From the IMG/VR virus record IMGVR_UViG_2526164688_000024: 20,819 nt of DNA. One strand, written 5' to 3'. Below, one piece after another: positions 9,466 to 20,224 of this stretch; within the stretch, counting starts at the first letter, position 1, and every line of letters starts with the position of its first letter. The translations under genes were made by a program, and so were the position numbers. Source of the DNA: a virus. Taxonomy: Duplodnaviria; Heunggongvirae; Uroviricota; Caudoviricetes. The notes beneath the pieces are model-generated. The model was not told the DNA's origin. It ran no database searches and saw nothing but the letters and a program-made list of their open reading frames with translations.

Positions 9466-9673
9466 CTTCATTTTCACTTTTTTTAAATCCAACGACAGAC
9501 GGCTGGCATTTAAGTATTGTGAAATATTATCAAATGTAATCATCATTGATTTACAAAAGATACATTTTGCCCCGAAAGGATTCATGTCAGAAACATCAAA
9601 AGATGATGTTCTATACTGGGAACCATGACAACACGGGCATCTAAAGTGAATATGGTTTGTAATATTGTCTACC

Positions 9674-9886
9674 TCAAAGCGCCACTACATGAACAGCGGC
9701 AGGACCTTTAGGTCCGTTCTCAATACCAAATTCAACTTCCTGATTCTCAGTTAATGTTTTGAAATCGTTGCTCTGAATTGCTGAGAAATGGACAAACACA
9801 TCTTTGCTGCCATCTTTCGGCGTGATGAAACCAAAACCTTTTTCAGGGTTAAACCATTTCACTAAACCAGTCATTTTGTTAGACAT
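9674..9886 (-). CDS. cspI: Cold-shock protein CspI
   Basis: 70-aa [73 protein letters not shown], matches recalled CspI; RNP1/RNP2 cold-shock-domain motifs (KGFGFI, VFVHF); long AT-rich 5' leader upstream. Confidence 0.9.
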
Positions 9887-10248
9887 AATTATTACCTTTT
9901 GAAGAAATTAGCCCTTGGGCAGAATGGTCCGAAAAAAAATATCAGAGAGAAAAACCAACAAGGAAATCTCAAGAGGTACAAATAATAAAATTATAACAAT
10001 GACTGCTTCAGATAAATTTGTAACAAACCAGAACACCATTAACGCATGATTAACCACCCATAGCAAGGATTACTTTTGTAAAGAAAAACACAGCAATGAA
10101 AGAATAGCTTTATTTATTAATAAAACGTGTCATTCTGATTAAGACCTTTTATCTTACCCTTAAGATTTCAGGAATTTTGGCTCATGGAAGAGTCCTTTTT
10201 ATTTAAATTTTACATTCCGCGATGTAAATGTTCCGATTTAATATTACC

Positions 10249-11272
<1,024 letters not shown>

Positions 11273-11276
<4 letters not shown>

Positions 11277-11588: not shown

Positions 11589-11804
11589 TTACTCTCCTCT
11601 CGCAGCCTTACGCCTGTCTTCTTTAATCTTGAAATAAAGATTTGTCAGATACGTCAGCAGGCCAAAAACCAGGCTACCCAGCACACCGATTGCAGCCCAC
11701 TGTGACGGAGTTACTTTATCGAGTAACTGTAATGCCCAGAAACCAGCATTACCCGCCGATGTGCCATAGGCAACACCTGTTGTTAACTTATCCATTGATT
11801 TCAT
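11589..11804 (-). CDS. essQ: Class II pinholin (phage 21 S-like) with dual start MKSM
   Basis: ORF track 11589..11882; ATG at 11804 and second ATG at 11795 give [71 protein letters not shown], near-identical in pattern to recalled S21 holin ([71 protein letters not shown]). Confidence 0.85.
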
Positions 11805-12251: not shown

Positions 12252-12276
12252 ATAAAAAACCCGCCTGAGCGGGTTT
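12252..12276 (-). terminator. Rho-independent terminator (strong on minus strand, weak on plus)
   Basis: ACCCGC-ctga-GCGGGT stem (12259..12274) followed on the minus strand by UUUUUUAU (plus-strand A-run 12254..12259). Confidence 0.55.
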
Positions 12277-12557
12277 GAGATTGTGGTGCTTTTTGTGGGA
12301 GTCATCCACTTACGCACTTTGTTTTGCGATGCCAGCAGTTAGCTTCTGCTGTGAAACTATTCATGCAGCAAACCTGCACTTCACCACAATGGTTAGCATA
12401 CTTTTCCTGATTAAGATTTTGCCAAATATGCTAGCCATTGTTTCATGTATTGGACCTCCTTACTTTTTATTAAAGAGATCCAATATTCACTACTCTGTCC
12501 GTATCTCTACTCAGGCATCAGCCTTCTTCGTTATCGTATACAGACGAGCGATGAATT

Positions 12558-12773
12558 TTAATCAGTAATGATGACATTTGCTGCTGCAGGACCTTTAGCA
12601 CCTCTCTCTATAGAGAAGGTAACCTTTTGACCTTCAAATAAGGTTCGATAATTATCATTCTGAATCGCAGAAAAATGCACAAACACATCTTTACTACCAT
12701 CAACAGGAGAAATAAAGCCGAAACCTTTATCAGCGTTAAACCATTTTACTAAACCAGTCATTTTATTTGACAT
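12558..12773 (-). CDS. cspB: Cold-shock protein CspB
   Basis: 71-aa [59 protein letters not shown]..., matches recalled CspB; 5' leader contains the csp 'upstream box' GCCGAAAGGC (minus strand, ~12790). Confidence 0.9.
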
Positions 12774-13071
12774 TCTACATTCCTTAACTTGAGCCTTTCG
12801 GCATAAATGGTTTGCATAACAGAAACGACTTCGTACTTAATTGGAGAGACTCAAAGAAGGAATAAGTGAATAACACCTGAAATGAGAACTGCTTTAGTAA
12901 ACTACTTCGTATATCGTCTGTTCTTCAAACCGACGCAGTCATTAACTCATAGTTGAACATATGAAGCAATGTTTATTTTAGACATCCAGCCACCTTCAAT
13001 CCTATCAAAAAAGTAGTTTTCTCCAGGAACGTGTGTATGGTGCACCAGGTTATCAGTATTAAGGAGTTTTT

Positions 13072-13312
13072 CTGTCCCCTAAAATGACAGGAATTGTCAA
13101 AAACTTTGACTACAAAAGCAGCAAAGGTCTTATATTCCCATCCGATGGCGTATCGATGCCCAGCTTCACGTTTCAGCTCTCAATCTTCGAGATGCAGAAG
13201 AAATTACCACAGGATTACGCGTGGAATTTTGCTGGATAAATGGTTCGCGTGGACCTTCAACTGCCAATGTTTATCCCGGGATGAGATTCAATATCTCTAT
13301 TGCCCCATTTAA
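13072..13312 (+). pseudogene. cspF: cspF remnant (start codon CTG, internal frameshift, no canonical stop)
   Basis: AAGGAG at 13061..13066 is followed 5 nt later by CTG TCC CCT AAA ATG ACA GGA ([26 protein letters not shown]; recalled CspF begins MSRKMTGIVK...); after ...SDG the CspF-like sequence continues in another frame ([42 protein letters not shown]) and runs on without the expected stop. Confidence 0.55.
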
Positions 13313-13313
13313 A

Positions 13314-13352
13314 GCACAAAAACCCGCTTATAAGCGGGTTTTCTACTTTTTT
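13314..13352. terminator. Bidirectional rho-independent terminator (candidate tR' of the late operon and cspF terminator)
   Basis: Perfect 20-bp palindrome AACCCGCTTA|TAAGCGGGTT (13321..13340) flanked by AAAAA upstream and TTCTACTTTTTTC downstream. Confidence 0.6.
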
Positions 13353-13374
13353 CTAAACGTCGGATACACAAAGC

Positions 13375-13417
13375 CCATCGTTGAGAAAATCTTATCCATA
13401 TTTTTTGAAAAATGCAA
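13375..13417 (-). promoter_or_regulatory. Candidate late promoter PR' with sigma70-dependent pause element, just downstream of Q
   Basis: Minus strand: -35 TTGCAT (13417..13412), 17-nt spacer, -10 TAAGAT (13394..13389), then AACGAT (13380..13375) at about +2..+7, the same -10-like pause-inducing hexamer I recall for lambda PR'; terminator hairpin follows within ~60 nt. Confidence 0.5.
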
Positions 13418-13448: not shown

Positions 13449-14201
13449 TTATCTCGTCACCTTCCTCAATTGCGCTTCCGCGTATGCTTCTTCCTGCCAG
13501 CACTTTGTTACCAGTTTACCAATGACGTCCGCATACCCCTTATACCACTGATAATCGGTCAGGTCTGGTACCAGCTTCTGGACATGACGTCGTGCCAGCG
13601 TGGTCGGTAAACGACTAAACCGGTTTCCATTACAACGCCCACAAATCTTATATACCGGTACGCCATGAAACCGGGTTCTTTTTTCATCCAGAACAATCCC
13701 TTTACCCTTACACCCTCTGCACGCTGTGCTGACTTCGCCCTTACCATGGCAATGCTGACATAGTTCCTTCACCCATTCTTCCTTGATTACAGATTCCCCG
13801 CGTCTGTAGTGTTTCACCACTTCGCGCAATACATTATAAAATCCCGTACCTGAACAATGCTCACAGCGAGCCTTACTTGCCGCAGACCTGGAGTAATCAG
13901 CAAAGGCAAAATTCACGAGGTAAGGAATAATCTGTAACCGGATTTCTTCACTCAATTTGTTCAATGTCGGGTTATCCAGTGCCATCGCGTAATTTAGCAG
14001 GCCTTCAATCGCAAACTGAGCGTCCTGAACACCAACTTTTGCCAGAAATAAGGCCAACCCAAGTGGTGCTTTCGACTGCACCATCCCCTGCGCTGCCATT
14101 ACATCCGTAATTGTTAAACAACCGGTGCCTGTCGCTGGAGCGTCATCGCTCAATTTTGGAGATTTTGGGGAGTAATATTTTGGTAAGGCTTCAAGGTTCA
14201 T
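13449..14201 (-). CDS. quuQ: Late-gene antiterminator Q (phage 82/21-type, Zn-finger)
   Basis: ORF track 13449..14231; start ATG 14201..14199 after GGAGAA gives 250 aa ([16 protein letters not shown]...); multiple CxxC pairs ([30 protein letters not shown]); position immediately upstream of late promoter/lysis genes. Confidence 0.75.
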
Positions 14202-18059: not shown

Positions 18060-19560
18060 AAATGAACACCAGAAACGCGACTTAAGAATCTACCCTATGA
18101 ATGGATATGCACTCAACCGAATCGATCTTGGTTTCAATCTTTTTTATCGGGATCAGGCTTCTTTTTAGGTAACTTCGGGGGCTTAACTTGCTGATGACTT
18201 TGCGTTCGGCGCGTAAGCCAGGGATGGTCAGCTTTAGGTTTAACATAGTATTTTGAGCGTAAATCAATACGGGCATTATCCACTCGTTCATGGACACTCT
18301 TTTCATCATCCAGTGGTATAGGCTCCGGGCCATCAACATACTTTTCCCAGCCCAGCGCTTTCCCGTCATACAGAACGTTAATTTCACCGTCAAAGTTCTC
18401 GCATACAGTAACAACCGAATGCCTAAGTCGATATCCCCGGCCCTCACTGCGTACCTGAAACGCACTGCTTTTGTACTGGAAAGTGAGATTTTTAGACAGA
18501 ACGCGCTTCGCCTGTAGGCTGAAGATATAACCCAGTTCCTCTTCAGAATGGTGCACATCAAGATGAGCATTATCAGTAGTACGAGGCGACGTAGCGAACC
18601 GGTTGTTATAGGCTTCAATAAAGGTCGGCAACCATGCATTTGCTGTTTCAATATCACTGATATTCTGAAGCCGCATTTCTTTGACCAGCCTGTCCTGTAG
18701 TGTCTGATTGGCGCGCTCTACCCGCCCTTTTGCCTGCGGGCTGTTGGCATGGATTGGCTCGATGCCCAGTGTCTTTATCGCACGAGTGAACTGGGTCAGC
18801 TCACCTTCCCGCTCTGGGTTATTTACCCTGAATATACTGTGTCTATCAGAGTAGAGAGCGAGCGGTACGCCATGATCATTAAGGTAACCCCGGAGGGTTT
18901 CCATGTAAGCCCGGGTTGTTTCAGCAGGCACAAAACGCAACGCCATCAACGCACTGGTGGCATCATCAATGAAAACGATCAGTGTACATCTGGGGCCTCG
19001 ATTTTCAAACCAGTCATGAGGTGAGCCATCAATCTGGATCAGTTCACCGTAAGATGGTCGTCGCATGCGGCGTTGATATATACGGGCAATTTTACGACGG
19101 CGTTCACGCCATAACCCCTCTTCTATCATCCACTTTCTGAGAGTTTCAACGGATAAAGATAAACCGTGTATCTCACGCAATTTTTCGCACGCAAACGTAG
19201 GTCCAAAATCAGCGTAACGGCCTTTGAGGAGTGAAATTACTGTTGCTCTGAATTCAGTAGAAAAGGAATTATTAGGACGCTTTCCACGTCGGGGGGAAAC
19301 CAGACCAGAAGGCCCTTCATTTCTATACCGTTGCACCAGACGTTTAACCTGCCGAATAGAAATGCCAATGCGTGCCGCAGCTTGTTCCTGAGTAATATGT
19401 CGATTAATTGACTCCTGAATAATCTGAAGTCGGTGGAGTTCCTTATGACTCATCGTAACAGTCTCTTTGATCATGAAAAATCCCCCAGAGAATTGTCTGG
19501 GGACATTTTAGAATGGTTCAAAGGGGACATTACAGCTTGGTGTTAACAATAGCCTGCTTC
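18060..19560 (-). mobile_element. Insertion sequence carrying the IS481-like transposase (boundaries approximate)
   Basis: Single transposase ORF inserted ~400 bp after the flxA terminator where K-12 Qin has intK/dicCA; I could not identify terminal inverted repeats by eye, so ends are estimated only. Confidence 0.35.
18134..19474 (-). CDS. DDE transposase with N-terminal HTH and integrase-core (rve) domain, IS481-family-like
   Basis: 446-aa ORF; N-terminal HTH region (EQAAARIGISIRQVKRLVQRY), catalytic-core motifs IQIDGSPHDWF ... LYSDRHSIF ... SPQAKGRVERANQTLQDRL consistent with a D,D(35)E integrase fold. Family assignment is tentative. Confidence 0.75.
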   Translation of the reverse strand: MIKETVTMSHKELHRLQIIQESINRHITQEQAAARIGISIRQVKRLVQRYRNEGPSGLVSPRRGKRPNNSFSTEFRATVISLLKGRYADFGPTFACEKLREIHGLSLSVETLRKWMIEEGLWRERRRKIARIYQRRMRRPSYGELIQIDGSPHDWFENRGPRCTLIVFIDDATSALMALRFVPAETTRAYMETLRGYLNDHGVPLALYSDRHSIFRVNNPEREGELTQFTRAIKTLGIEPIHANSPQAKGRVERANQTLQDRLVKEMRLQNISDIETANAWLPTFIEAYNNRFATSPRTTDNAHLDVHHSEEELGYIFSLQAKRVLSKNLTFQYKSSAFQVRSEGRGYRLRHSVVTVCENFDGEINVLYDGKALGWEKYVDGPEPIPLDDEKSVHERVDNARIDLRSKYYVKPKADHPWLTRRTQSHQQVKPPKLPKKKPDPDKKD

Positions 19561-20224
19561 TCCTTGCCTTTCGGCACGTAAGAGGCTAACCTACATATGT
19601 CTAGCATGAAATTGGCCTCAGATTAATGTTAAGCGTCTTGCAGGACGCGTAATGTTAACTGGGGCTTTTCTCTATCTGCCGTTGGTGTTCATGCCCGAGG
19701 CAGATAGCCTCAAGCACCCGCAGCCATTCTACTTAACTACCGTTACCTCGCCAATGTGAAATCAGTCAGAAAGGCGATCCATAAGAACAATAGCAAGACA
19801 ATAAATCGCCATTACAGCCGTAATAGCCAGCGCACATTTGAGAACCAGCACCACAACCTCCTGTATTGGACGTAGACCAGTCCTGATGAATATGAGGCTG
19901 TCTCGTCAGTGATTCAATACAACTATTGGGTATAGTTTCTCTGATTTTTTCTGTGGAAATGGGGCACAACCACTAGTCACCACCAGCACTTCTTTTAATA
20001 CGCAAAGTCCGACACAAGCTAACCTTCTAGTCCGCTTTGAGCGAAAAACAGCCATAATTTAGTGCCACGTATATAATGATAGAGCTATTCAAGCTAGCAA
20101 TTCACATGTAAAAATTCAGAGGGTAGAAGCACATAGTTATAAATGTTGGCTCCATCGACAAATTGCGGTCTCAAGTACATTTATTAATGTTGCCCCCGCA
20201 TTAACAAATCATCAAGGTGACGAC

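Follow-up and report, generated by a model that had tools for sequence, protein, structure and literature searches.

A probable lambda-type late-gene switch downstream of the Q gene in a Qin-like prophage

The short region that follows the Q gene in the stretch of DNA analyzed here (20,819 nucleotides, called the window) is very probably (roughly 0.88) a PR'-qut-tR' late-gene switch, belonging to a Qin-like lambdoid prophage and following the plan of lambda, P22, and phi80. As such the feature is ordinary, a lambda-type cassette of Q, PR', pause element and terminator, and the RNA of its ortholog in Escherichia coli K-12 is already catalogued. An earlier note on this DNA had recognized in the region the architecture expected for Q antitermination, with a sigma70 pause element and a near terminator, and this proposal is borne out by the family of the Q protein, the lambda spacing, the recurrence of the layout in the family, and the published K-12 data. 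The elements of the switch and the late genes that it would serve, all on the minus strand, are the following (coordinates of the window).

13449..14201, minus strand: Q antiterminator gene of the ydfT/quuQ type, 250 aa, intact; Pfam PF03589 Antiterm (E=3.1e-54) plus DnaJ_CXXCXGXG.
13412..13417, minus strand: -35 hexamer of PR', TTGCAT, from sequence reading; the same in all 20 distinct variants taken from close relatives of Q.
13395..13411, minus strand: 17-nt spacer TTTTCAAAAAATATGGA, candidate Q-binding element, in which TTTTCAAAAAA and TGG are almost invariant.
13389..13394, minus strand: -10 hexamer of PR', TAAGAT; positions 1, 2, 5, and 6 invariant among the variants.
13382, minus strand: predicted +1 (A13382), at the same offset from the -10 as the lambda +1 and the annotated 5' end of the P22 late RNA.
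13374..13382, minus strand: predicted sigma70-dependent pause element AACGAT (13382..13377, +1..+6) with a discriminator-like GGG (13376..13374, +7..+9), from identity to lambda pR'.
13314..13382, minus strand: short terminated leader RNA of ~65-69 nt, ortholog of the K-12 sRNA ECS025, from the K-12 ends and the fold.
13318..13342, minus strand: intrinsic terminator tR', a 24-nt perfect palindrome, AAAACCCGCTTA followed by TAAGCGGGTTTT, at 13342..13319 plus the T at 13318.
12257..12276, minus strand: second intrinsic terminator, after cspB, with 8 pairs (5 of them G-C) and a T-rich tail, from the terminator listing.
11589..11804, minus strand: holin of the essD/essQ type, the first late gene reached; Pfam Phage_holin_2_1, DEC9B annotation mapped to the window.
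10743..11276, minus strand: endolysin; Pfam Phage_lysozyme, DEC9B annotation mapped to the window.
10249..10746, minus strand: Rz, from the DEC9B annotation mapped to the window.

A Q-lambda-type cassette is defined by a Q gene, PR', QBE, SDPE, a terminator and the late genes (PMC9388147), and the gene immediately upstream of the promoter is of PF03589. Among solved structures the protein matched the Q-lambda entry PDB 7UBM (E=6.9e-36) as well as chains of 4MO1 and 7UBJ, and the annotation of E. coli DEC9B names the gene ydfT. PF03589 is the Q-lambda family, PF06530 that of Q21 and PF06323 that of Q82, and the three have no mutual sequence similarity (PMC9388147). The Pfam search of the window protein returned PF03589 and the DnaJ zinc motif only, with no match to PF06323 or PF06530. 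The earlier note had named phages 82 and 21 as comparators for the Q site; these belong to unrelated families, and the right ones are lambda, P22, and phi80. Residues ~110-200 of Q contain four CXXCXGXG motifs, with ~43 residues more than lambda Q, in which a single zinc ribbon forms the arm contacting DNA and sigma. Most of the Q-lambda-family members that we found are of this long type (250-273 aa, phi80 included), lambda and P22 having the short one (207 aa). The additional ~43-aa zinc repeat falls in the region of lambda's DNA-contacting arm, so that the details of Q docking may differ.

The stop codon of Q (TAA, 13451..13449 on the minus strand) lies 31 nt before the -35 hexamer, and the sequence TTGCAT-N17-TAAGAT, which had been described as directly following the Q stop on the minus strand, is indeed read at 13417..13389. 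The position of TTGCAT matches that of TTGACT in lambda and P22 and of TTGCAT in phi80. The spacer agrees with the lambda spacer in 11 of 17 bases, the phi80 record annotates its Q site at the equivalent place, and the conserved TGG could double as an extended -10-like G at -14. Positions 3 and 4 of the -10 hexamer vary, with TAAAAT in K-12 and TAGGAT elsewhere, and the TAAGAT of the window is weaker than the K-12 version. By consensus the hexamers are weak, since the -35 matches at 3/6 positions and the pair at 7/12. With only three of six positions matching in the -35, the site was passed over by a consensus promoter scanner applied to the window, and it is homology that carries the argument, not the consensus score. 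The two hexamers with their 17-nt spacing and conserved key bases are nonetheless those of a sigma70 promoter, whose activity is seen through the K-12 ortholog only.

Between the -10 and AACGAT there are six bases, TTTCTC (13388..13383 on the minus strand). The order in lambda is TTGACT-N17-TAAATT-TGACTC-AACGATGGG and that in the window is TTGCAT-N17-TAAGAT-TTTCTC-AACGATGGG, with identical spacings. In lambda, AACGAT occupies +1..+6 and GGG +7..+9, and the binding of sigma70 there causes the pause at +16/+17 that is needed by Q. Being identical to the lambda element and equally distant from the -10, the window sequence is expected to act as a sigma-dependent pause element of the Q-lambda type. 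The earlier note had called it a lambda-like pause hexamer, which stands, and had placed it at +2..+7, which is off by one, as it covers +1..+6 by lambda numbering. The elemental-pause consensus (G at -10, a pyrimidine at the RNA end, then G) is matched less exactly than in lambda.

AACGATGGG occurs once in the window, where 0.14 occurrences are expected, and the composite TTG-N20-TAnnnT-N6-AACGAT also occurs once, against 0.01 expected, a count that was reached in 1 of 100 shuffles. The composite motif is not a product of chance. These figures bear on a different account of the region, in which the hairpin simply ends transcription of cspF, a convergent gene, and the promoter-like hexamers and AACGAT have arisen by chance. 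The weakness of the hexamers is in keeping with that account, and the perfect palindrome does read as a plus-strand terminator just after cspF, but the same promoter, pause element and terminator follow Q in phages that have no cspF (SfV, P22, phi80, SPN3UB, and others), and in K-12 the end of cspF is ~290 bp from the hairpin with ynfS in between. Moreover, a minus-strand transcription start site and a 3' end are mapped at the K-12 locus. We consider a cspF terminator next to a chance promoter scarcely credible; it is ruled out by the cspF-less cassettes, the mapped K-12 ends and the statistics of the composite motif.

In the PR'-qut-tR' reading, the hairpin terminates the short leader. It has a 10-bp stem and a 4-nt loop (-13.9 kcal/mol), and its GCGGG is followed by five T (13322..13318), the last of them outside the palindrome, and then by GTGC (13317..13314). 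The palindrome was described in the earlier note as perfect, bidirectional, and 20 bp long; the first two properties hold, while the length is 24 nt. The plus-strand reading of the hairpin is listed as a terminator by the scanner, and the terminator is therefore bidirectional. Counting from A13382, the hairpin begins at +41, the U-run ends at +65, and the base equivalent to the K-12 3' end, C13314, is +69, which fits the claim of a terminator ~60 nt downstream. In the predicted fold of the 69-nt leader, at -19.3 kcal/mol (z = -2.3), the terminator hairpin is formed. The hairpin and U-run found here, together with the Term-seq 3' end and the ~65-nt northern band of K-12, are those of an intrinsic terminator. 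At Rfam gathering thresholds the leader had no match, the hits being two cspA thermoregulators and sok only. RNAalifold found no consensus among 16 terminator hairpins, and covariation statistics are inapplicable because unrelated hairpins have replaced one another at a constant place, and none are covarying copies. They were assessed by per-sequence folds.

Published data exist for the orthologous locus in the cryptic prophage Qin of K-12, which is 94.7% identical to the window over 245 nt and has the same elements. It differs in the -10 (TAAAAT), in the hairpin loop (GATG), in a 4-U run, and in ~250 bp more past the terminator, with ynfS and an intact cspF. A class I dRNA-seq start site was reported at 1640444-1640447 on the reverse strand of NC_000913.2, together with an sRNA listed as 'ECS025, cspF-ydfT' at 1640375-1640447 (Romero et al., 2014). 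With the offset of 1,976 between NC_000913.2 and NC_000913.3, which was checked through the cspB start only and is accurate to ~1 nt, this start cluster maps to C-1..C+3 of the orthologous AACGAT site, that is, on or next to the first A, in agreement with the predicted start. An 'orphan' Term-seq 3' end was mapped at 1,642,356 (minus), in ...GCGGGUUUUGUGC, with average reads of 103,591 (LB, OD 0.4) and 55,368 (LB, OD 2.0; Adams et al., 2021). This 3' end is +67 in K-12, and its equivalent in the window, C13314 (+69), coincides with the lower coordinate of the earlier note. By northern blot, ECS025 gave a band of ~65 nt under all conditions that increased 2-3-fold on cold shock, and the RNAs found lowered in an hfq mutant did not include it (Shinhara et al., 2011). 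The start-site mapping and the search for a short terminated transcript, both proposed earlier as checks, thus already have a positive answer in the K-12 ortholog. In the literature that we found, ECS025 is an sRNA with a predicted sigma70 promoter only and not a late-promoter leader. A literature search linking late promoters with ydfT, quuQ or Qin turned up no paper describing the promoter, and in the searchable literature we found none that names ECS025 as the Qin late-promoter leader.

The conservation of the elements was followed in a set of 20 distinct versions from close relatives (Q identity ~94-100%). The -35, the spacer core TTTTCAAAAAA, the TGG before the -10, positions 1, 2, 5, and 6 of the -10, and AACGATGGGCTTT are invariant or nearly so, and variation is found in the bases between the elements, in the leader beyond +14 and at synonymous sites in Q. 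Among the close relatives the terminator hairpin has been swapped for unrelated stems (CCCGC/GCGGG, CCTCGC/GCGGGG, and others) with its position kept, and in 13 other cassettes, too, an unrelated hairpin stands at that position. Such a pattern is to be expected where what counts is the DNA elements and the existence of a hairpin, and not the RNA sequence. The homology of the relatives stops right after the terminator, at a mosaic junction; the Q module has a recombination boundary at this terminator. In contigs L004-L083, whose Q is 95-100% identical, the similarity extends over promoter and leader and ends a few bases past the terminator (~13310 in the window), with at least six different cargoes beyond.

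It is possible to regard the locus as a stand-alone sRNA gene, the ~65-nt RNA being a trans-acting regulator like StxS and the likeness to a late promoter being secondary, a view that is compatible with the late-gene switch. ECS025 is abundant and constitutive in K-12, where Qin is cryptic, and responds to cold shock by 2-3-fold; besides, StxS is itself a PR' leader turned regulator, and its authors suggest the same for the lambda 6S RNA. The conserved bases are, on the contrary, those of promoter, Q-site and pause elements acting at the DNA level, the leader from +14 to the hairpin varies freely in close relatives, and the hairpin itself is exchanged for unrelated ones. No conserved seed region or single-stranded segment such as expected for an StxS-like sRNA is visible among the close relatives, and the absence of ECS025 from the list of RNAs reduced in the hfq mutant does not point to an Hfq-dependent sRNA. 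We judge the regulatory RNA view quite unlikely.

Another observation concerns the leader. The window carries CGTT at 13356..13359 on the minus strand (+24..+27), complementary to the AACG at +1..+4, and CGTT is present at +14..+28 in all the leaders starting with AACG, which are 10 of the 13 lineage representatives of the Q-lambda family (for example, contigs L001, L084, L090-L093, and L127). The motif is strongly enriched, as it occurs in ten of these ten leaders, whereas shuffles averaged 1.3 and never exceeded 7. The motif is also found in vB_EcoS-813R8 and YeP1, lineages with the pause hexamer AATAAT or AAGGAT, and as it persists where its 5' partner has changed, an AACG/CGUU RNA stem is not clearly the reason for it. 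We regard it as unlikely, if worth recording, that either the CGTT at +14..+28 is an unrecognized signal for Q loading or pause escape, or a 5' stem of AACG with CGUU, or else the cold-induced 65-nt leader of the Qin type is an StxS-like trans-regulator.

The genomic setting agrees with a late-gene switch. The phage genes of the window lie on the minus strand, in the order ydfU, Q, cspF (opposite strand), cspB, ynfU (opposite strand), holin, ydfR, lysozyme, Rz, and cspI, and according to the annotation of DEC9B, which is 100% identical to the window across 271 bases around the promoter region, the terminase, portal and capsid genes come next. Lysis and morphogenesis genes are thus downstream on the strand of the promoter, as in a Q-lambda-type cassette, although tR' and the holin are set ~1.6 kb apart by an insertion that comprises the cspF pseudogene, cspB and ynfU. 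The route given in the earlier note, through the antisense of cspF, then cspB and a second terminator to the holin, fits the order of these elements; the second terminator is present, at 12276..12257, and K-12 Qin has it after cspB in the same arrangement. Sequence related to the locus is present in 2,156 of 5,426 complete E. coli genomes.

Several details of this neighborhood were recorded. The cspF of the window (13072..13274, plus strand) is a pseudogene, with a frameshift and its C-terminal codons missing; in K-12 an intact cspF and ~250 bp extra that include the small gene ynfS are found between cspF and the terminator, and in viral contig L015 the two layouts are combined in a hybrid. 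The late transcription unit includes the cspA-type thermoregulator 5' UTRs of cspB (12542..12934) and cspI (9647..10032), both on the minus strand, and upstream of the Q region lies sok, the antitoxin RNA belonging to a hok/sok module (19548..19719, minus strand), all three matching at the Rfam gathering level. In K-12, a very abundant Term-seq 3' end lies downstream of cspB (1,641,226 and 1,641,224, minus, NC_000913.3; ~0.6 and 1.2 million average reads). It is not located at a hairpin but coincides with the first codon of a short ORF (11 codons, MKQWLAYLAKS), ahead of which stands a strong AAGGAGG, and the same sequence is also in the window at ~12411..12460 (minus strand). Upstream of hok/sok, at 18134..20100, the 595-aa DUF4209 ORF of DEC9B is absent from the corresponding place in the window, where a 446-aa minus-strand ORF is found instead (18134..19474); the window and DEC9B therefore differ in the early region, which in the DEC9B prophage contains an IS2.

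That IS2 and the adjacent cspF pseudogene are what one would cite for a decayed relic, in which promoter and terminator still work and Q antitermination has been lost, by drift of Q or its site or because Q is never expressed. K-12 Qin, being cryptic and yet still making the short RNA, would provide a precedent. The window Q is, against this, full length and 100% identical to the copies in many viral contigs, and isolated phages with a Q 94-99% identical (Tritos, PhiR42_1, SfV, Stx2c phages, mEp460) have the same promoter region. In addition, the functional bases are visibly constrained in the 20 variants, and the late lysis genes are intact, with terminase, portal and capsid next in DEC9B. 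A relic appears rather improbable to us.

In the absence of Q, the sigma70 RNA polymerase of the host would initiate constitutively at about A13382. Region 2 of sigma would then bind again at the -10-like AACGAT (+1..+6), assisted by GGG (+7..+9), and hold the polymerase in a promoter-proximal pause at ~+15..+17, from which it would escape to terminate at the hairpin and U-run (+41 to ~+65-69), releasing an RNA of 65-69 nt. [quoted passage not shown] The modified polymerase would pass tR', the antisense of the cspF pseudogene, cspB with its terminator and the antisense of ynfU, and continue into the holin, endolysin, Rz and structural genes. The position of the pause, the binding of Q to the spacer and the Q-dependent read-through are those that we infer by analogy; read-through and pause are extrapolated from lambda, since no experiments on this strain or on any Qin-type Q were found. 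The stem of the terminator begins 24 nt past the expected pause. For lambda, the prediction is that the 5' end of the RNA enters the nozzle and passes through it while the RNA lengthens from 12 to 15-16 nt, so that the short distance from pause to terminator would be no problem.

Identification of the switch gives a late promoter, a pause element and a tR' to the Qin-type prophages, present in ~2,150 of 5,426 complete E. coli genomes, and gives the orphan K-12 sRNA ECS025, as well as a Term-seq 3' end listed as 'orphan', a place in a textbook mechanism. It also offers a natural set of variant promoter/Q pairs for work on Q-site specificity and indicates that the long-armed Q proteins, with two zinc repeats, share the promoter geometry. 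Beyond annotation, its importance is small.

The DNA after Q was compared among 15 phage and prophage cassettes. Ten of them (the window, K-12 Qin, SfV, P22, phi80, SPN3UB, a Proteus phage, YeP1, vB_EcoS-813R8, and a Klebsiella phage) share a layout of -35, a spacer of ~15-17 nt, -10, 6-7 bases, and AAyGaTGG(G/A), with a terminator close by. In lambda and Salmonella phage SF6 the leader is long and of the 6S type, Edwardsiella phage Edno5 has AACGCTGGA with the terminator much farther downstream, and in the DNA after Q of Erwinia phage vB_EhrS_49 and Yersinia phage YP3 no element of the AACGAT type was found. The U-run ends at +55..+74 in 14 cassettes, the ten above and four close-relative variants, the window being at +65. 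The short terminated leader, which had been presented in the earlier note as a peculiarity, is then the norm: a leader of ~55-75 nt is the usual state in the Q-lambda family, and the 194-nt 6S RNA of lambda is the exception. In the P22 record the 5' end of the late RNA is the first A of AACGAT, with t late/tR' at +31..+59; for phi80, pR' and the Q site are marked in the record together with a terminator that ends at ~+75.

Lambda PR'/qut/tR' resembles the window in the family of its Q protein and in an intrinsic terminator followed by the lysis genes; CTCAACGATGGG matches at 12 of 12 positions, and 21 of 30 bases agree over -17..+13. It differs in the length of the leader (194 nt, against ~65-69 nt in the window), in the upstream half of the spacer (ATTGAAT, against TTTCAAA), and in the -35-like TTGACT beside the pause element, which is degenerate in the window (TTTTCT). 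The window has, further, a Q of 250 aa with an extra CXXCXGXG zinc repeat and ~1.6 kb of genes between tR' and the holin. P22 (gene 23/t late) and phi80 (gene 17) share with the window the Q family, the layout of promoter and pause element and the short leader, and phi80 has in addition the TTGCAT -35 and a long Q (~269 aa). Their hairpin sequences are unrelated to that of the window and their spacer, the presumed Q site, is different, and phi80 has AACGCT instead of AACGAT. Guo and Roberts are said to have found in 2004 that each Q recognizes its own site, and differences in the spacer are to be expected if that is so. The StxS RNA of Shiga-toxin phages is likewise a constitutive short RNA of lysogeny that results from termination at tR' downstream of PR'. 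It is, unlike the window leader, a 74-nt fragment processed from a 258-nt transcript and has demonstrated regulatory targets, a role that the conservation of the window leader does not suggest.
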